Sequence record: LN881738.1
Strand: one strand, 5' to 3'
DNA: 41,318 nt
DNA from: Clostridium phage slur17
The translations under genes and the position numbers were made by a program. Every line of letters starts with the position of its first letter. Position 1 is the stretch's first letter. Shown here one piece after another: positions 1 through 41,318 of the stretch. The notes beneath the pieces are model-generated. The model was not told the DNA's origin and made no database searches. It saw only the letters and a program-made list of their open reading frames with translations.

Positions 1-595
1 TGTCTGTAACTTCTTTAGTTAGAGTATCTTTAGTAGTATTAACATCACTAATCATGCTGTTTTTAGCGTCTGTAACTTCTGTAACTTTAGAGTCGAAAGT
101 TTCTTTTATACTATTAAATTCTTCGACTCTTTTAATTTCTGCTTCTTTTCTTGCTTCTTCTGTTTCTTTTATTTCTTCTATGCCTTCGACGACTTCTTTT
201 ACTTGATTTATTGTAACGCTGATATAATCCCATTTCGGTTCTTCTGTAATACTGTTTTTATCTATACTTTTCTCTATATTAATCTTTAAAGAAAAAGTAG
301 TAACAACTAAATCATCTTTGTAGAAAGTAAACTCTACTATTACATCCCCCGCAACTTCTGTTATGTTATTTTCTATTATAGTTGTTGCAATAGAATTTTC
401 TATAGTACAGCTCTGATAAACTATTTTCCCGTCTGGTCTTTGAAAATTTGCTATAGCTGTATATCCTGTCAAATCTTTTTCTATATTATTTTCTAATAAA
501 TTAATCTTAAATTCTATTGCATTATCATATTGCTTATATTTTGCAACTTGGTAACTTTTAGTGTTAATATCTACTGTATAAATTCTATCTCTCAA
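1..595 (-). CDS. Tail fibre / baseplate upper protein-like, N-terminal part; 3' end runs off the window start
   Basis: Hand translation of the minus strand: SD AAAGGAG (604-610), TTG start at 593-595, open frame to position 1 (LRDRIYTVDINTKSYQVAKYKQYDNAIEFKINLLENN...EEARKEAEIKRVEEFNSIKETFDSKVTEVTDAKNSMISDVNTTKDTLTKEVTD). Globular N-terminus then a coiled-coil-like repeat region. Not in the ORF track, which does not report window-truncated ORFs. Sits directly downstream of Tal in the tail operon. Confidence 0.5.
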   Translation of the reverse strand, partial: MRDRIYTVDINTKSYQVAKYKQYDNAIEFKINLLENNIEKDLTGYTAIANFQRPDGKIVYQSCTIENSIATTIIENNITEVAGDVIVEFTFYKDDLVVTTFSLKINIEKSIDKNSITEEPKWDYISVTINQVKEVVEGIEEIKETEEARKEAEIKRVEEFNSIKETFDSKVTEVTDAKNSMISDVNTTKDTLTKEVTD

Positions 596-14453: not shown

Positions 14454-15026
14454 CTATATGTTCAACATTTCTCTATTTTTTGCTATCATTTGTTCCATTA
14501 AACTTACTTTAGACTCTCCAGCATCTCCACCGCTAGAACTAACAACCTTTGGAACACTATTGCCATTTATAAAAGCCCCTGGGTCATTTGCCTGCAATTC
14601 TTTTATATAATCATCTGCTCCCTCAAAAGCCCCGTTCTTATATTCAAGTCCCTTCTCTTTCATTTTTATTTTTACAGCCTCTTTTGAGAGATTGCTAGAA
14701 AACTTAAAATTACTTAAATAATTATCTAAATTTAAGTTATAAGTTTGCTCTGACATTTGATTTTCAATCAATTCCTTATCTTTTTGAGCCTGTTCGGCTT
14801 TACTCTTCCAGTCATCAACCTCTTTTTTTATACTCTCAACATCTATTTTTTCTAAGTCTTTAATTTTATTATTAGCTGTTTCGAGTTCAGTATTTTTACT
14901 TTCCAATTCTTCTTTTTTCTTTTCTACTTCTTTTTTATACTTTTCTATATCCCTCCCATTTTCGGACATGATTTTTTCTATAACCTCATCCTCTAAATTT
15001 AAATCTTTCAAAAACTCTCTTTTCAT
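14454..15026 (-). CDS. Scaffolding protein
   Basis: 190-aa strongly Glu/Lys-rich coiled-coil protein directly upstream of the capsid gene. Confidence 0.6.
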   Translation of the reverse strand: MKREFLKDLNLEDEVIEKIMSENGRDIEKYKKEVEKKKEELESKNTELETANNKIKDLEKIDVESIKKEVDDWKSKAEQAQKDKELIENQMSEQTYNLNLDNYLSNFKFSSNLSKEAVKIKMKEKGLEYKNGAFEGADDYIKELQANDPGAFINGNSVPKVVSSSGGDAGESKVSLMEQMIAKNREMLNI

Positions 15027-15157
15027 AAAAACCTCCTGTTTTCATTTACAATTACGCTTTTTTACGTGGTAGCATCACATATTGTCTAACTTTTTACGTC
15101 GCTTAGTAGACATCTATATAAATGAATTAAGTATTTTAAGCATAAAAATAAGTCTTA

Positions 15158-18419: not shown

Positions 18420-19742
18420 TTAGTCACCTCTTATAAATCTTTTTAAATATCTCTCTATTGTATATTCAAAAGCATCTAAACTATCTATATCACTTGACCC
18501 ATCATCAAGTCTTACATCCTCATTAGTTTCTTTACTATCCCAAACAGCACTACATAAAGCATTAACAAGAGTTTCACTATGCTTTGTATACTCAAACCTA
18601 CCTTGACTAATTAATAAGTCTGTAAGTCTTATCCTATCGTTAATAGCACTCTTCAAAGCATTTCTAACACTAACATTTAATTTTTCTTTTTCTACTGCAT
18701 TTTTAATGCCTCGTATTAATACCTGTTCAGCACTATCGCAATAAACATAATCAACTTTACCATACAGATTTATTACCCTTTTTATAAAGTTTATAAGTAA
18801 AGCATTCAACTCGTCTGGACTGGTATCTGCACTAGGTCTTTCACTTGCAAGAGCTATTACTTTTTTATAGTTATAAGTAATTCCAGTTGCGACAAAGGCA
18901 TGATATGATTTGTTACCCCCAAAATCCACTCCAATAATAACGTCCATAAGTGGGTCAACTGTTTCAGTCTTAAATTGCTCTTTATTATTAGCAAAGTATT
19001 CATATATAAGCCCCTCGGCTACACAGCGCTGACCTAGTATATCTCTCTTGTACCAAATACTGCCCTCGTCATATTGAGATATAATTGCCCGTTTTCTCTC
19101 GTCCGAGACTGTTATATTGTCGTGGATGGTAAAGTGCTGATAGTTATACCCACCTAGTAAAGTGCCTTCCCTATCTTTTTTCATATAAGCATCAATATAT
19201 TCTTTGTAAATTGACGAGTTGGGATTATCGGGGTTTAAATCCCAAAAAATTTTACGATTAGTTGATGCTATAATTCTATTAAAAGCCTCTTTGATAGTAT
19301 TGTCATGGTGCAGATTTATCTCTGTTGCTATCCACATGCCATATGAGTTACCCCTTATTTTCTTATAACTATCAGCCTTAGCCCCTCCGGCAAAAATAAC
19401 AATCTTTTGCTTATGCTTAGTTGAAATACCTTTTACATACAAACATTCATTGCCCTTAAATTTACCCCAATGACATTGCCCTCTGAAAATATATTCAAGT
19501 CCAAAACCATTAGCATCTCCAATGTTCAATTTTGCATTTGCACTTGTAGACCCTGTTGCTAGATGTATCTTATCTTTAGATGTCTTTATCTCATGCGCAA
19601 AGGCAAATACATTGTCAACCGTCTTACCCGCTCTTACAGCGCCTTCGGCTATATTGTATGTATTGATAGCGCACTTTTTAATATATTCTTTGTGCTTATC
19701 TCCAAATCGAAAAGGTATAGTTTTCTTCTTAGTTACTGCCAT
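18420..19742 (-). CDS. terL: Terminase large subunit
   Basis: 440 aa; N-terminal P-loop GAVRAGKT, C-terminal nuclease-like acidic region; terminase-portal order. Confidence 0.85.
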   Translation of the reverse strand: MAVTKKKTIPFRFGDKHKEYIKKCAINTYNIAEGAVRAGKTVDNVFAFAHEIKTSKDKIHLATGSTSANAKLNIGDANGFGLEYIFRGQCHWGKFKGNECLYVKGISTKHKQKIVIFAGGAKADSYKKIRGNSYGMWIATEINLHHDNTIKEAFNRIIASTNRKIFWDLNPDNPNSSIYKEYIDAYMKKDREGTLLGGYNYQHFTIHDNITVSDERKRAIISQYDEGSIWYKRDILGQRCVAEGLIYEYFANNKEQFKTETVDPLMDVIIGVDFGGNKSYHAFVATGITYNYKKVIALASERPSADTSPDELNALLINFIKRVINLYGKVDYVYCDSAEQVLIRGIKNAVEKEKLNVSVRNALKSAINDRIRLTDLLISQGRFEYTKHSETLVNALCSAVWDSKETNEDVRLDDGSSDIDSLDAFEYTIERYLKRFIRGD

Positions 19743-20436
19743 AGATTTCTGCCTCTATCTCTTCTATATCCTCTATTTCTAAGTCATTACCAGTCAACTT
19801 ATTTGTTCTCGCTTTTATGTTTTCTATTCTGCTTTTTTGTTCTTCTGTTGCTAAATCCCAATTTTTATGAAGTAGTTCCTCATAGTCTTTTATCATTTTG
19901 GACAAAGCTTTAAATGCTGTCGCCTCTGCCTTCATAGCATTTGTAACTTTATCCCAAGAGTGTTGAATTTCATACTCTTTAATTTTATTACCATTTTTCT
20001 TAATGTCAGTTGTATGGTCTTTTTTATTTTTGACATGGGTAATCTTAAAAGAATCTAATATTTTCGCATACTGAACTACTATACTGTTCCAAAGAATGTC
20101 TAAAGAATTGCCACCATCCTTCTCGATATATTTAACAATCTCGTAAGTTCTAGCAGGCAAAAGCTTAGAGAAAAATCCATGAGTTCTAGCATTTTGATTA
20201 TTCGCTGGTGCGCCTCCTTCATGCCCTAAAGCATTTTGGTTGCCGGCTGGTGCGCCAACTTTCTTATTTATTCCAAGTCTATAATCCCATCTATCAATTT
20301 TTTTCCAACGACTAATATTGCAACTTTTTTCTTCTAACATTTTAGAGATATCAATTAATTTTATTCTCCCATTTTTCTCCTTGTAAATCTCAAACGCTTT
20401 TTCTCGATTGGAATTTTTTATTGAAATACAAATCAA
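19729..20436 (-). CDS. terS: Terminase small subunit
   Basis: 235 aa; N-terminal HTH-like region then GAPAGNQNALGHEGGAPANNQNA repeats; overlaps terL start by 14 nt. Confidence 0.7.
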   Translation of the reverse strand: MICISIKNSNREKAFEIYKEKNGRIKLIDISKMLEEKSCNISRWKKIDRWDYRLGINKKVGAPAGNQNALGHEGGAPANNQNARTHGFFSKLLPARTYEIVKYIEKDGGNSLDILWNSIVVQYAKILDSFKITHVKNKKDHTTDIKKNGNKIKEYEIQHSWDKVTNAMKAEATAFKALSKMIKDYEELLHKNWDLATEEQKSRIENIKARTNKLTGNDLEIEDIEEIEAEIYGSN

Positions 20437-20464
20437 CTCCTTTCAATAAAAAAAGACTAAGTAC

Positions 20465-21061
20465 CTAGTCTTCTTGTTTTCGCTTTGCTCTTTGTAATGT
20501 ACTCTTACTAATCCCTGTCATTCTCTCTACTTGCGTATAAGAATTAGTTTTTAATAACTCTAAAGCATGTTCCATTTGCATCTTAGTATATTTTTTAGGT
20601 CTACCTTCCCGGAAATTAGGATTTTGCTTTGCTATCTCCTTACCTGCAAAAGTTCGTTCTAAAATTAGATTCCTTTCCATTTCTGCAACTGCAAGCAAGG
20701 TTGTTATAAAAAACTTGCCAAGAGTAGTATTTTCTAAAAGCCCAACATTAAGCACATGAACAGAAATACCACTATCAAATAAATTTTGTATAAGATTAAT
20801 ACCTTCTGTTGCATTTCTTGCAAGTCTATCCAATTTAGTTACAACTAATTTATCACCATCACGCATTTGCTTAACCATTTCCTCAAAAATAGGTCTGTGC
20901 GTGGTTGACCCTGTATGTTGTTCCCTAAATATTTTAGCATCACTATAATGTCTTTTTATTTCCTGCTCCTGCTGTTCTAAACTATTATTATCAATTTGTA
21001 CTTTACTACTTACCCGACAATACCCAAATATCATAAAAATACACCCCTTACTTTTGACCAT
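20465..21061 (-). CDS. Serine recombinase (resolvase/invertase family)
   Basis: Motifs IFGYCRVSS (catalytic Ser), [29 protein letters not shown]-terminal HTH. The probable true start is the second Met at about 21034, which has SD AAGGGG nine nt upstream. Confidence 0.85.
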
Positions 21062-21087
21062 TAGTTATGACTACCTTCTATATGTTC

Positions 21088-21116
21088 ATTTTACTACATA
21101 ATCAAATCGTAGTCAA
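21088..21116 (-). promoter_or_regulatory. Sigma-A-type promoter upstream of the serine recombinase gene
   Basis: On the minus strand: -35 TTGACT (21111-21116), 17-nt spacer, -10 TAAAAT (21088-21093). Confidence 0.4.
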
Positions 21117-21498
21117 TACCGTACAGTTATGAATACGAGTGAATTTTTTTAAATGAATCAAAAGTACTTATAAGTATTGTCATTACTCTTGCAAAAGGGC
21201 GTAATTGAATTGTTTGCCTGTGAATTTTGTAGTTTTTATTGCATCAAACTCATTCTCTATTTTTCCATGTCCTTTAAGTTTTGTCCGTATGTCCTTAAGC
21301 TTCGTCATGGCCATTTTAATGTTAAATAGCTTCTATCCCAGTATTTATAATGGCTAACGCCTATTTTAACGAATATGGGGTTTTCTTAGAGAATCAGACA
21401 TTCACTTTTTACTTTTCCTACTTTATATATAGCGAAAAAAATACATTGAATATATAAGCCTTTATTTTTCCCACATTCAAAAAGACAAAATAAAAAAA

Positions 21499-22107
21499 TC
21501 ACCCTATTAGGTCATTTAAAAACATGCTATATTCTTGATATTGTTCTTCATTAAGACCTAGATATACCTTAGTTTCTTCTATACTAGAATGTCCAAGCAT
21601 TTCCTTAACTCTTATAATATCAAATCCACTTTCTTCGTATATGGTGTAAGCGTATGTTTTACGCATGCTATGCGCTGTTATATGCTTAAGTCCAAAGTAT
21701 CTACCTGCTTCTTTCAGTATCACTGTTACTCTCTCAACGCCTATATGCGGAGTAACAGATTTTTGCCTGGATGGGAACATATATTCATAGTCCTTTTTAT
21801 CTCGTATGTAGCTTTTGAGTACTCTTTCTAAATTAGGAACTATTGGAGCTTTTCTAGGCTTTTTATTTTTCTTTCTTATGTTCTTAGTCTTTTCTTTTTT
21901 ACTCTCCATTATTAAGAAATAACCTTCGTCTATTGCATTTCTAACGTCCCTTACCTGTAGTTTAACTAAATCCCCTGCCCTGTAGCCCGTAGCCACCCCT
22001 AAGACAAATAAAACATAATTTCTAACACTCTTTTCTTTTAAGTATTCTTGTATATTTAAGACCATACGTTTGTCTTTGACTGGGTTAGCTGGTTTCTTAC
22101 TACCCAC
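21499..22107 (-). CDS. Tyrosine recombinase, catalytic domain only (integrase remnant or Xer-like)
   Basis: 202 aa with catalytic-domain signatures ATGYRAGDL (Arg), HITAHSMRKTYA (H-x-x-R), LGHSSIEETKVYLGL (His and Tyr); the N-terminal core-binding domain is absent and the 177 bp upstream is non-coding. Confidence 0.75.
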   Translation of the reverse strand: MGSKKPANPVKDKRMVLNIQEYLKEKSVRNYVLFVLGVATGYRAGDLVKLQVRDVRNAIDEGYFLIMESKKEKTKNIRKKNKKPRKAPIVPNLERVLKSYIRDKKDYEYMFPSRQKSVTPHIGVERVTVILKEAGRYFGLKHITAHSMRKTYAYTIYEESGFDIIRVKEMLGHSSIEETKVYLGLNEEQYQEYSMFLNDLIG

Positions 22108-22284
22108 TTCTATTCACCTTCTCAACCCCCTTAAAATATTAATTTGCATTATAAAAAGCCCAACATTCCTGCCAGGCTTCAAATCTATATCTATTTAATT
22201 TTAAACTTCTTGATATTAATATTATACACTATATAAACGTAAAAGAGTGTTCTAACTTTGTCTTAAAAACCGTCTTTTTTTGTT

Positions 22285-22857
22285 CTATAAAAGACTTCCA
22301 CTTTCAAAAAGCATTTCGGCAAGTTCTTTCAATGCTTCCTTGTGTTTATAATGAACATTACTGCGACTACATTTAATCTTTGAGGCAATTTCTTCATTAG
22401 AAAGTTTACTTGCGCCATCATAAAAATACATAAATTTTATAATTTGTTGCTTCTCTTCTGTAAGTTCACTTATGTAAATATCCATTAGTCTCAATCTATA
22501 TTCTATAAAATCAATTTCACTTTCTTTAAATGATATTTTATCCTCATTATTCATAATCATTTCATCTATGCCCTTCGGGCTAGAATGTATTTTAAACCCT
22601 AGTTCATTGAAATTTATCTCTCTATAAAATTCTTTATCTTTTAAAAAATCTATCTCTTTTCTTAGAATATCTACTCTTCTTTTCTTATTTCCAAGTTCAA
22701 TTAAATATTCTTTGGTTTCTTCAACTAAGCAAGAACTTACGTTTTTTTCTTTGTCTTTTTTATACTTTCTTTCGCATGATTTACAGCAAAATCCGTTTTT
22801 TGACTCTGTAAAAAATGACTTACCGCACCATGAACAAATCCTTTTCTTTTTTGCCAT
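22285..22857 (-). CDS. Putative transcriptional regulator with zinc ribbon and sigma-70 region-4-like HTH
   Basis: N-terminal CSWCGK...CCKSCERK zinc ribbon; C-terminal SNEEIASKIKCSRSNVHYKHKEALKEL resembles a sigma region 4 HTH. Confidence 0.5.
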   Translation of the reverse strand: MAKKKRICSWCGKSFFTESKNGFCCKSCERKYKKDKEKNVSSCLVEETKEYLIELGNKKRRVDILRKEIDFLKDKEFYREINFNELGFKIHSSPKGIDEMIMNNEDKISFKESEIDFIEYRLRLMDIYISELTEEKQQIIKFMYFYDGASKLSNEEIASKIKCSRSNVHYKHKEALKELAEMLFESGSLL

Positions 22858-32591: not shown

Positions 32592-33410
32592 GTGGAGAAA
32601 ATGGCTAATACAAAGCTACTTACGTACTTTAACATAAAAGGAGGTATCTATAAGACAACAACGTCTATAATGACAGCGTATGAACTTGCGAAAGATAAAG
32701 ATAAAAAAATACTCTTATGGGACTTAGATGTGCAAGCAAATCTAACACAATATGTTTATGAAATAAATCATAATGATAATACTACATTAGATATTTTAAA
32801 AGGGATTAGTGCTAATGATGCAATAGTCAAGTCACCTAATGAAAATTACATTAATGTAGACTTAATTCCTTCTGACATACAAATGGCTAGATTTGAACAA
32901 GAGCTATCACCTTTACCAGCCAGAGAAAAATTTTTAGCTCGCTGGTACATGCAAAACTTTAATACTTTGAGTGAGTATGATTATATTATCTGTGATTTAT
33001 CTCCACGCTACGATTTGACAGCTAAAAATGTGCTTTTCTTAGCAGATAGTATAATTATTCCAATTCAAGATAAAAACATTTCTTCTTTAAGAGGAGCAGA
33101 ATTATTTAAACAACTCTGGGATGTTGATAGAACCTATTTTGATAAGGAGGATAATATAAAAAGTACTATTTTAGTTGGATTTGAGAAGAAGAAAACTCAA
33201 ATTAGCGATACTTTCGATTCTTATCTGGAAGGGTTTAACGATATGAGAGATATTATGTTAGATACATACATTAGAAAAAATGAGTTTATAGAGAAGGCAC
33301 TATTAAAAAAACTATCTCTAACAGATTATACAAAAATAACTAAAGAGCATTTCAGCAGACAGGAATTTACTAATATGTTAGAAGAATTGAAAAGAAAAGG
33401 AGTGTTATAG
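32592..33410 (+). CDS. parA: ParA/Soj-family partition ATPase
   Basis: 272 aa; deviant Walker A KGGIYKTTT, A' motif LLWDLDVQAN, Walker B YIICDLSP. Confidence 0.85.
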   Translation: MEKMANTKLLTYFNIKGGIYKTTTSIMTAYELAKDKDKKILLWDLDVQANLTQYVYEINHNDNTTLDILKGISANDAIVKSPNENYINVDLIPSDIQMARFEQELSPLPAREKFLARWYMQNFNTLSEYDYIICDLSPRYDLTAKNVLFLADSIIIPIQDKNISSLRGAELFKQLWDVDRTYFDKEDNIKSTILVGFEKKKTQISDTFDSYLEGFNDMRDIMLDTYIRKNEFIEKALLKKLSLTDYTKITKEHFSRQEFTNMLEELKRKGVL

Positions 33411-39752: not shown

Positions 39753-41318
39753 TAACTCACCTCTTCTTTTATTTCTTCTATTTGATTACCTTTAAAAGTC
39801 GTTTTTACTTTACTTACTAATACATTATCTATATATTTTTCGTCTACTATAGTCCCATCTGCATTAAATTTAGTTATAGTTTTACTAACCGAGTCTAAAA
39901 TATCTGTTATAGAGCCGTCTGAATTAAAAGTCGTGCTTTTTTTAATGTAATCTAACTCTTTCGGTTTTTCTAATAACTCATTCCATGTAACTTTTCCTTT
40001 TGACGCTTTCCCCGTGTCTTCTCCATTTATAAACCAATTACCGTTTTCGCCGATTGCTGGAGTATAACCTTGTTCCCCTCTAAGCTCTGTATATATATAT
40101 TCCGTTTGTCCTTCTTCTCTAATACCTAGCTGACTTCCATTCCAATTAAATTCTAATTTATTTCCTGTCGCTCCTTTTAGATTTGTATAGCTATAGTCCT
40201 CTTGACCTTCTATTCTAACGCCTAGCTCCGTACCATCCCAACTAAATTCAATGCTATCGCCTTTTTGACCTTTCAAATCTGTATAAGTATAATTCTCCTG
40301 TCCTTCTATCCTTACACCTAGTCGTGTGCCATCCCATGCAAATTCGATATTGTCACCTTTGAGGTCTATATACTTATAATCTAATTCGTATTGTTGCCTA
40401 ACGCCTAACTGTGTGCCATCCCAATTAAATTCTAGGTTCTTGCCGTCCACGCCCGCTAGAGAACCTAAGTCTTCCCATTTAGTTTGATATATATAAATAT
40501 TTCTCCCTATAATCCAGCAATCTCCGATAGTAGGGTCTAATGGTAAGTTATCTATAGAATCTAATTTTCCTAAAATCCTCAAAGATGCCCCTCTAGCTGG
40601 TTTTTGGGTATCTATATTATTAATCCACCAGTTTCCATTTTCTCCTATTGTTGGAGTATAACCCTGCTCCCCTTTCAATTCTGTATAACTATAATTTTCT
40701 TGACCTTCTATCTTTATACCTAATCGTGTGCCATTCCAATTAAATTCAATACTATCACCTTTATCGCCTTTTTGACCTTTTAAATCTGTATAAGTATAAT
40801 TCTCCTGTCCTTCTATCCTTATACCTAGTCGCGTGCCATCCCAATTAAATTCTAAGCCATCTCCATTTTCACCCTTTATTTTTATGTCAGGAACTTTGAC
40901 CCAATTAGTGTTGTCCCAAACATATAAATCAATTTGGTTTTCTATTGTTGCGCTTTTTACAAAGTAAGCATCACTTAAAGTTGGATTGACTGGAAGTGCT
41001 GATATATTATCTAAACTTCCTTTTATTTCTATTCCTACCCCTTTTAACTCTTCTTTTGTGGGGATTGCATTAATAGCGTCTGTAACTTCTGTCTGCATAG
41101 TTTCTTTAGCTGTAGTTACTTCGCTAATCATAGTATTTTTAGCTGTTGTAACTTCCGCTTTAACTGTGTTAACTTCGTCTATTAATGTTGTTTTAGTAGT
41201 ATTAACATCACTAATCATGCTGTTTTTAGCGTCTGTAACTTCTGTAACTTTAGAGTCGAAAGTTTCTTTTATACTATTAAATTCTTCGACCCTTTTACCT
41301 TCTGCGATTTCTAATTCT
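39752..41318 (-). CDS. Tail fibre protein with six ~30-aa tandem repeats; N-terminus lies beyond the window end
   Basis: The frame is open from 41318 down to the stop at 39752; the ORF track starts it at an internal Met (41218). Contains coiled-coil heptad-like units (EVTDAKNSMISDVNTTK) and six copies of (L/I)EFNWDGTRLGIRIEGQENYTYTDLKG. Confidence 0.6.
   Translation of the reverse strand, partial: ELEIAEGKRVEEFNSIKETFDSKVTEVTDAKNSMISDVNTTKTTLIDEVNTVKAEVTTAKNTMISEVTTAKETMQTEVTDAINAIPTKEELKGVGIEIKGSLDNISALPVNPTLSDAYFVKSATIENQIDLYVWDNTNWVKVPDIKIKGENGDGLEFNWDGTRLGIRIEGQENYTYTDLKGQKGDKGDSIEFNWNGTRLGIKIEGQENYSYTELKGEQGYTPTIGENGNWWINNIDTQKPARGASLRILGKLDSIDNLPLDPTIGDCWIIGRNIYIYQTKWEDLGSLAGVDGKNLEFNWDGTQLGVRQQYELDYKYIDLKGDNIEFAWDGTRLGVRIEGQENYTYTDLKGQKGDSIEFSWDGTELGVRIEGQEDYSYTNLKGATGNKLEFNWNGSQLGIREEGQTEYIYTELRGEQGYTPAIGENGNWFINGEDTGKASKGKVTWNELLEKPKELDYIKKSTTFNSDGSITDILDSVSKTITKFNADGTIVDEKYIDNVLVSKVKTTFKGNQIEEIKEEVS

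Follow-up and report, generated by a model that had tools for sequence, protein, structure and literature searches.

In the plasmid prophage P1, the tyrosine recombinase Cre has one inverted-repeat site, loxP, which has a 13-8-13 layout and lies beside its gene and near the packaging genes. The transposon Tn4430 encodes TnpI, a recombinase of 284 amino acids (aa) that resolves cointegrates at a compact gene-adjacent site of four motifs, a core inverted repeat and accessory direct repeats. In Tn3-family elements, the resolvase acting at res also represses its own gene. XerS and XerH have their dif site beside the gene (PMC2731167). The phage phiCD38-2 was the first Clostridioides difficile prophage shown to persist as a plasmid outside the chromosome, and parA is among its genes (PMC6127314, PMC4009436); both of its recombinases have been listed, and the Xer-like enzymes are ‘believed’ to resolve the dimers of plasmid prophages (PMC8026635). 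The window analysed here is the whole stretch of 41,318 nucleotides from Clostridium phage slur17 (LN881738.1), a member of the phiCD38-2 group, and it encodes a small serine recombinase and a short tyrosine recombinase next to the terminase small subunit gene, terS (Table 1). A preliminary description of the sequence had proposed the pair as a multimer resolution system; since every relative has annotations for both genes and the dimer idea has been published, the finding was already known in that form.

The comparative analysis pointed, with a probability of about 0.5, to two independent modules, in each of which a recombinase lies beside its probable target: a serine resolvase that would act on multimers, and a tyrosine recombinase that would interconvert monomers and multimers. 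Direct observations were the identities, the architectures, the synteny, and the finding that each site is linked to its gene and co-varies with it. For the tyrosine enzyme, a self-contained recombination module was favoured because the catalytic residues are intact and a single dyad site, which co-varies with the enzyme, is adjacent to the gene.

The Pfam domain Phage_integrase covered residues 19–187 of the 202-aa tyrosine recombinase (E 3.8e-21). Residues R43, K70/K71, H146-x-x-R149, H173, and Y182 were invariant in 22 homologs, and the R-K-H-x-x-R-H-Y residues together with the catalytic fold placed the enzyme in the tyrosine recombinase superfamily. The AlphaFold model was a single domain with a predicted local distance difference test (pLDDT) score of 85.5, and it matched the catalytic domains of XerA, XerH, Cre, and IntI with TM-scores of 0.6–0.69 on the query, or 0.37–0.51 when normalised on the targets. 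Xer structures aligned only from their residue ~110, and the enzyme had no core-binding domain. Its NCBIfam scores were 82 bits for XerA (cut-off 220) and 60 bits for XerC (cut-off 335), which, with the lack of a core-binding domain, placed it outside the Xer family. It was likewise placed outside the lambda Int-type integrases, which have arm- and core-binding domains, attP, and attL/attR junctions in the lysogen: the enzyme has 202 aa and no room for more upstream, and the window is a closed phage genome of a phage reported to be a plasmid. The size, the R, H-x-x-R, H, and Y residues, the lack of a core-binding domain, and the non-coding DNA upstream of the gene had all been recognised in the preliminary description, but the enzyme is not ‘reduced’, as had been stated there. 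A missing N-terminal domain or a frameshift was rejected, since the non-coding DNA of 177 bp is too small to encode a core-binding domain and hundreds of homologs are equally long.

The size of the enzyme was characteristic of a large family. A word-indexed search gave 561 proteins at E<1e-5, and the best 120 of these were all 198–228 aa long, came from Clostridia, and were 59–68% identical, with the exception of a C. difficile cluster at 93% identity. When cluster representatives at 50% identity were searched exhaustively, 608 matched at E<=1e-10, of which the top 150 were nearly all 170–270 aa long and aligned from about residue 5. Since the homologs are equally short, the ~200-aa form (roughly 180–230 aa) is native to the family and is not a truncation. 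In a translated search, the enzyme matched 193 phage records, including 124 of Streptococcus, 34 of Clostridium and Clostridioides, 27 of Bacillus, and 3 of Listeria. It also matched phrog_216 (E 2.3e-65). In three satellite phages of Streptococcus suis of ~10 kb (Javan555, Javan582, and Javan591), the short recombinase was the last gene, no more than ~40 bp from the end of the record. Behind the catalytic lysine, the short recombinases have in common a strongly basic insertion (residues 68–86 of the window enzyme; KEKTKNIRKKNKKPRK), in which N76, I77, R78, N81, P84, and R85 were invariant and the AlphaFold model had low confidence. This insertion may substitute for the DNA contacts of the absent core-binding domain.

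The DNA between the two recombinase genes (437 bp; 21062–21498) had been proposed as a candidate res- or dif-like site, and candidate sites were found in it, namely a res-like site upstream of the serine recombinase gene and two lox/dif-like sites, E1 and E2, downstream of the tyrosine recombinase gene. The length given for the region was correct, but the term ‘intergenic’ applies only with reservation, given an annotated 43-aa open reading frame (ORF); this ORF is doubtful as a conserved gene because, in the relative HS2022a, it differs by two indels (11 and 12 nt). The block 21322–21500 was ~99% identical in HS2022a, compared with ~87% genome-wide. Without comparative data, repeat and promoter scans of the AT-rich DNA at 20300–22400 gave nothing conspicuous, and promoter-like sites were fewer than in shuffled sequences.

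When related loci were aligned, a conserved element was located at a fixed offset downstream of the recombinase stop codon in ~75 distinct loci, the recombinases of which were 57–68% identical. The element was composed of a T-run, E1 (TGAATGT-N19-ACATTCA), an A-run, a TATAT block, AAGTAGAAAAA, E2 (consensus TGAATGTnTGATT-CTCTAAGAw-AATnnAACATTCA), and often a long hairpin, in this order. The sites began ~20 bp after the stop codon, and the arms of E1 were only 7–8 bp long. In the dyad statistics of 52 loci, positions 1–7 and 11–13 of the E2 arms were complementary in 77–100%, positions 8–10 and the centre were not complementary, and controls shifted by one base had no symmetry. Therefore, E2 is an inverted repeat of 13-9-13 with an asymmetric centre, loxP-like in form. 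It occurred in one copy in the window genome, and the pattern was essentially restricted to this position when 1.3 Mb of related loci were scanned. No second E-type site and no res-type partner were found elsewhere in the window genome. The stretch between E1 and E2 is promoter-like, as read from the alignment; it was weak in the window, below the scan threshold, and stronger in relatives (e.g., TTGAAG-17-TATATT).

Other explanations of the element were also considered. Rfam had no match to it, RNAalifold gave no consensus structure for 52 sequences, and one compensatory pair (in loci L033 and L072) together with a few variants compatible with G.U pairing was insufficient for an RNA structure. 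A cos site was rejected, since in SM1 the following gene, gp33 (HNH-like sequence), comes before the annotated cos, and since the element persists with differing terminase types. Module shuffling by crossover within E2 was unsupported, with eight informative pairs breaking 15–80 nt downstream.

A sister subfamily, the SM1-type recombinases, was 32–36% identical to the window enzyme and kept the catalytic residues. The sites of SM1 (ATTTAACAGAA-TATAAG-ATATGTTAAAT) and phiCD6356 (GTTTAACAGAA-TATACC-TTATGTTAAAC) were 28-bp palindromes of 11-6-11, and the SM1-type arms were equal to the XerD arm of Escherichia coli dif (TTATGTTAAAT; dif from PMC2731167) at 10 of 11 positions. The dif-type layout was thus present in the SM1-type sites, whereas E2 of the window is 13-9-13 with other arms. 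In phiCD6356, the regulator is of the window type (42% identity), but both the recombinase and the arms are SM1-type, and therefore the repeat arms follow the recombinase subfamily and not the regulator. A blind scan of the viral collection for the SM1-type site alone (TTAACAGAATATNNNNTATGTTAA) gave at least 120 loci. Among the 103 site loci with enough upstream sequence, 100 had a same-strand recombinase ORF of 181–225 aa whose end lay 92–226 nt (median 100) upstream. Since a search started from either one recovered the other, gene and site are tightly linked. In phiCD6356 (L088, 3035–3206), two tandem dif-like sites followed the short recombinase, together with two TTGAATG words similar to the window-family arms.

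The gene order around the short recombinase was compared in two chromosomal prophages, 80 viral contigs, and the more distant phages SM1, phiCD6356, and phBC6A52, and it was constant in this sample. A sigma-70 region-4-like/ArpU-like regulator, often with a small zinc-ribbon ORF, was followed by the short recombinase, a non-coding gap of roughly 170–450 bp, and the packaging genes (HNH, terS, terL, and portal). The window contained the complete cassette, namely a recombinase within 180–230 aa, the regulator upstream, the packaging genes downstream, and inverted-repeat sites within ~20–230 nt. The zinc ribbon (CxxC...CxxC) was N-terminal in the window regulator and a separate small ORF in related phages (clusters 104, 24, and 48), which looks like a gene fusion or split.

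The cassette was also present in phages with an integrase of their own. HM T, which is annotated gene by gene against host chromosomal locus tags, carried a large serine integrase and the cassette, and two further loci had the short recombinase in addition to a tyrosine integrase of 385 aa (L004) or 392 aa (L046). The Streptococcus and Bacillus carriers of the cassette included records annotated as prophages. Therefore, the short tyrosine recombinase is no argument for an episome over integration. The preference of the preliminary description for multimer resolution over integration was consistent with the episomal phage group and the lack of an att junction, but it cannot draw on the tyrosine recombinase gene, which integrase-bearing prophages also carry. 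An integrase was seen in 1 of the 80 viral loci, within a view of 10-kb flanks. The prophage of L004 (Clostridium sp. BJN0001, CP094971.1) is chromosomal and encodes ParA and ParB along with the full-length integrase and the cassette. The phage phiMMP04 (L094, NC_019422.1 19642–20460 and 29933–30436; Sherbrookevirus) has a ParA-like gene and a window-type helicase replicon, and may be another plasmid prophage; the short recombinase was the sole recombinase within the half of its genome examined.

The serine recombinase matched Pfam Resolvase (E 1.7e-31) as well as the C-terminal domains HTH_7 and HTH_49. Its best solved relatives were the Gin invertase (2e-22) and the Tn3 and gamma-delta resolvases, with end-to-end alignment. 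The full ORF (20465..21061) encodes 198 aa, and its residue S18, which corresponds to S9 of the 189-aa protein, was aligned to S9 of Gin. The start was assigned to the second ATG (21034) because the upstream ATG is lost in HS2022a (87% identical), in which a 1-nt deletion shifts the frame; the Gin alignment and three database annotations also begin at the second ATG. With an N-terminal resolvase domain, a Ser nucleophile, a C-terminal helix-turn-helix, and a length within ~180–200 aa, the protein is a small serine recombinase. The resolvase/invertase type, the distance of 28 bp to terS, and a promoter of its own had been noted before and were all confirmed, the last as a TTGACT-17-TAAAAT match; the ORF boundaries also stood, whereas the translation start at 21061 was replaced.

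The relatives of the serine recombinase were mainly found on plasmids. A translated search matched 1544 plasmid records at E<1e-30, mostly of Enterococcus, Lactiplantibacillus, and Lactococcus, with the closest from Clostridium and Terrisporobacter, and 34 phage records at E<1e-20, 7 of which were of the phiCD38-2 group. Among the loci surveyed, the enzyme was present only in this group (Leicestervirus). In Terrisporobacter pTG1 and in a C. perfringens plasmid, homologs with 55–59% identity adjoined ParA and ParM, respectively. Upstream of the serine recombinase gene, the DNA aligned with the corresponding DNA of the plasmid homologs, and the common blocks were TCATAACT, ATATTGAC, GTCATAAC, and TCAAAAGT, of which ATATTGAC is the -35 region of the promoter-like site. 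This region is a probable res site, and the serine enzyme the probable multimer resolvase of the episome, as judged from the conserved blocks and the plasmid context. The resolvase would probably repress its own transcription there, by analogy with the Tn3 family. Since the half-site motif was defined post hoc, after the cluster had been viewed, the layout of the subsites was treated as suggestive only.

The serine recombinase is named DNA invertase in PHROG (E 1.7e-58) and likewise in RefSeq. No inverted partner for the res-like half-sites was found above chance level in the genome, the region was collinear in all relatives matched, and full-genome comparison with the relatives CDSH1 and HS2022a revealed no inverted segment. 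The invertase label was therefore unsupported, as was membership of the Hin/Gin subtype, in which two inverted crossover sites bound an invertible segment. Clustered half-sites, with the motif chosen post hoc, and the blocks in common with plasmid homologs were found for the resolvase subtype; sequence alone cannot separate resolvase from invertase.

Between the serine recombinase and terS, an intrinsic-terminator-like hairpin with a T7 run overlaps the serine recombinase stop codon and directly precedes the ribosome-binding site of terS. The changes in its stem in relatives were wobble-compatible, and the stem was retained. Since the hairpin abuts the ribosome-binding site and leaves no space for a promoter at 20437–20472, transcription of the packaging genes would have to start upstream and read through.

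The window was identified by local BLAST as the CDSH1 genome, to which it was 100% identical, reverse-complemented and circularly permuted. A 3.2-kb region around the recombinases was 100% identical to CDSH1 and 97–98.5% identical to phiCD38-2, phiCD111, and AR1075-1. The same element is filed in PLSDB as C. difficile plasmids of 41–42 kb. Whole-length comparison with CDSH1 revealed no host flanks or attachment junctions in the window; because the window is a whole circular phage genome, it contains no host DNA and no att junctions. Likewise, the upstream exon or frameshift that could have restored an integrase, and attL/attR, were looked for and were absent from this closed phage genome. The CDSH1 annotation contained no recombinase besides the serine and tyrosine pair. 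The ends of the window (1–142 and 41192–41318) fall in tandem repeats of the tail-fibre gene (CDSH1 19833–22304), and 301 bp of this repeat (CDSH1 20437–20737) were absent from the window, which is probably a repeat collapse during assembly. An Rfam GP20-b RNA (RF03003) was matched at 15053–15112 on the minus strand, with 55 bits compared with a gathering score of 36.2 (E 1.3e-9), directly upstream of the scaffold gene (14454..15026).

Table 1. Features of the window around the two recombinases and related context (strand as given; positions of the whole stretch).
Feature	Position	Strand	Remarks
terS, terminase small subunit	19729..20436	-	First packaging gene
Intrinsic-terminator-like hairpin + T7	20446..20472	-	AAGACTAG-GTAC-TTAGTCTT; between serine recombinase and terS
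Small serine recombinase, resolvase type, 189 aa	20465..21034	-	Nucleophile S9; C-terminal helix-turn-helix
Candidate res-like site of serine recombinase	21045..21137	-	Blocks kept upstream of 55–59% identical plasmid homologs
GTAKTCA(T)AAC-type half-sites	21125-21136, 21109-21115 (inverted), 21091-21097, 21063-21074		plus GGTCAAAAGT
Promoter-like TTGACT-17-TAAAAT	21116..21088	-	Serine recombinase's own; overlapped by res-like half-sites
Annotated 43-aa ORF (phiCD38-2 gp54, phrog_27502)	21183..21314	-	Inside the 437-bp region
E2, 35-bp lox/dif-like site, 13-9-13	21370..21404	-	TGAATGTCTGATT-CTCTAAGAA-AACCCCATATTCG
Promoter-like stretch between E1 and E2	21422..21450	-	TTCAAT 21450..21445, 17 nt, TATAAA in TATATATAAA 21431..21422
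E1, inverted repeat TGAATGT-N19-ATATTCA	21447..21479	-	Right arm overlaps -35-like hexamer
Short tyrosine recombinase, catalytic domain only, 202 aa	21499..22107	-	GTG start; ribosome-binding site GAAGGTGA
Non-coding DNA upstream of tyrosine recombinase, 177 bp	22108..22284	-	Promoter-like CTGGCA-16-TATAAT at 22175..22148
Sigma-70 region-4-like late regulator, N-terminal zinc ribbon, 190 aa	22285..22857	-	Conserved partner upstream of tyrosine recombinase
ParA-type partition ATPase	32592..33410	+	Plasmid-lifestyle context; also PMC8026635 Table 1

In the proposed mechanism, the serine resolvase would act at the res-like site to turn multimers of the plasmid prophage into monomers, which would then be partitioned by ParA. 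The ~200-aa tyrosine recombinase is predicted to bind the repeat arms and to recombine DNA at E2, with E1 as a putative accessory site, and would thereby interconvert monomers and multimers of the replicating circles, as modelled on Cre/loxP and XerS/difSL. Since E2 is found once per genome, it would act only between genome copies. Its binding would probably also affect the promoter-like stretch between E1 and E2, which points into the late genes, and recombination and regulatory roles could coexist, as in Tn3 resolvase. The tyrosine module would aid stable inheritance in a plasmid prophage, and in integrating phages its benefit may lie in lytic replication or in the preparation of DNA for packaging. 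The multimer resolution idea fits the serine enzyme best, and the tyrosine module is broader.

Several observations weigh against this two-module interpretation. Two resolution systems in one 41-kb episome appear redundant, and the tyrosine cassette is frequent in integrase-bearing phages, in which dimer resolution has no obvious benefit. In the window, the right arm of E2 is degenerate (8 of 13 positions), as in its phage group, and the centre of E2 is 9 bp, compared with the usual 6–8 bp. Mosaic breakpoints between close relatives were located 15–80 nt downstream of E2 and none inside it, and the res-like half-site motif had no genome-wide enrichment. Furthermore, a regulatory role would explain three features just as well: the location between late regulator and late operon, the promoter-like sequence separating E1 from E2, and the terminator in front of terS.

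Such a role was considered unlikely as the main function. In that explanation, the short tyrosine recombinase would bind E1 and E2 around the packaging-gene promoter and, with the sigma-like protein, would activate it or give read-through of downstream terminators, and any cleavage would be secondary. In lambda, gene Q lies just upstream of PR'-tR', and here the gene is constantly placed after the sigma-like late regulator and before the late operon. A -35-like hexamer, with the conserved TATAT block ~17 nt downstream, is overlapped by the right arm of E1, and E2, which contains a -10-like NAWAAT, is located in the would-be leader. A long hairpin follows E2 at many loci, in some with a T-run (e.g., L055), and the terminator directly before terS in the window leaves no promoter space. 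However, the catalytic residues are invariant in a very large and divergent family, which is unexpected for a pure DNA binder, and the site of the sister subfamily is a canonical 28-bp dif-like palindrome. The promoter match in the window was weak and below the scan threshold, the element had neither a conserved RNA structure by RNAalifold nor an Rfam match, and a tyrosine recombinase acting as an antiterminator was not found in the literature searched.

An exchange of roles between the two enzymes, in which the tyrosine enzyme would be an Xer-like dimer resolvase and the serine enzyme a DNA invertase that flips a phage segment, appears improbable. It would agree with the PHROG and RefSeq names of the serine enzyme, with Gin as its best solved relative, with the belief that Xer-like enzymes of plasmid prophages resolve dimers (PMC8026635), and with phiMMP04, where a ParA-like gene and the short recombinase were present but a serine recombinase was absent from the part examined. 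The res-like half-sites, however, had no inverted second copy beyond chance, the region was collinear in relatives, and the full comparisons with CDSH1 and HS2022a showed no inverted segment, while the nearest relatives of the serine enzyme are plasmid genes that lie beside partition genes and share the same upstream site architecture. There is even less reason to expect that a phage recombinase acts on the host chromosome, either by flipping RecV-controlled switches, with cwpV ON in lysogens, or by occasionally integrating the phage; such action was regarded as very improbable. The proportion of cwpV ON cells rises from ~5% to ~95% in phiCD38-2 lysogens by an unexplained mechanism (PMC6127314), a related phage changes the flagellar switch ratio (bioRxiv 10.1101/2023.08.24.554564), and RecV itself is a tyrosine recombinase. 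Nevertheless, recV mutants with the prophage are locked ON or OFF (PMC4737114), and therefore the phage recombinases do not flip cwpV on their own. In addition, the effect of the related phage was traced to the repressor-like PtrX (bioRxiv 10.1101/2023.08.24.554564), and the window contains no host junctions.

In the literature searched, which excluded the primary phiCD38-2 papers, two points were not found: the res-like site of the serine enzyme, obtained by comparison with plasmids, and the short recombinase with E1/E2 or a dif-like site as a widespread cassette that is independent of lifestyle. No described function for the short tyrosine recombinase was found in this literature. In the two-module interpretation, plasmid stability is the likely function of the serine resolvase and of the site upstream of it, for which exact coordinates are given, and this is relevant because prophages of the phiCD38-2 type change how epidemic C. 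difficile produces toxin and expresses surface proteins. The cassette is common to hundreds of temperate phages of Firmicutes (Gram-positive bacteria), at the boundary of early and late genes. The ‘second integrase’ in many phage records of Clostridium, Streptococcus, Bacillus, and Listeria, which databases classify with integration, is better called a separate cassette of putative function with a conserved site, and annotators should not use the short tyrosine recombinase gene as evidence of phage integration. As a more tentative and rather doubtful extension, the short enzymes might be autonomous recombinases about half the size of Cre, with a gene-adjacent site of 28–35 bp, that serve an unrecognised step common to temperate Firmicutes phages. 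This step could be the making or resolving of genome multimers before packaging, or a link between a recombination site and the activation of the late promoter. If so, a recombinase of 190–200 aa with a 28–35-bp target would be a very compact tool for genome engineering.

The serine recombinase resembles Sin, the beta recombinase of pSM19035, and the Tn3/gamma-delta resolvases in its length of ~190 aa, its N-terminal Ser catalytic domain, and its C-terminal helix-turn-helix. As in the plasmid and transposon resolvases of Firmicutes, a putative multi-part site upstream of the gene overlaps the promoter, and the relatives lie beside plasmid partition genes. Unlike these resolvases, the window enzyme belongs to a tailed phage, in which its gene is flanked by the late-gene leader and terS; its putative subsite layout was derived from conserved blocks, and no site for an accessory protein was identified.

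The best sequence and fold matches of the tyrosine recombinase were XerS/difSL, XerH/difH, and archaeal XerA. The SM1-type site shares the 28-bp 11-6-11 layout and the XerD-type arms with the single-recombinase Xer systems, whereas the window enzyme has no core-binding domain and is phage-borne, and the arms of E2 are unrelated to dif. FimB and FimE are also ~200 aa and essentially consist of the catalytic domain, and a weak collinear match to NF007370 was found (profile positions 30–181 of 200). The score was, however, 25 bits compared with a cut-off of 221, and no inverted-repeat pair bounds an invertible segment; the centres of E1 and E2 differ, the two sites are ~75 bp apart, and there is a single locus per genome. 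The enzyme was therefore placed outside the FimB/FimE type. TnpI of Tn4430 is similar, by description only, as a tyrosine recombinase with a compact site beside its gene, but E1 and E2 are both inverted repeats, unlike the accessory direct repeats of TnpI.

Cre is related to the window enzyme only remotely in sequence, with a Foldseek identity of 12–16%, and differs in its length of 343 aa and its N-terminal DNA-binding domain. Furthermore, the window has two tandem sites, E1 and E2, in place of one loxP, and the cassette also occurs in integrating phages. In its form and position, E2 is nevertheless similar to loxP, with 13-bp arms around an asymmetric centre (13-9-13), beside the recombinase gene and near the packaging genes.

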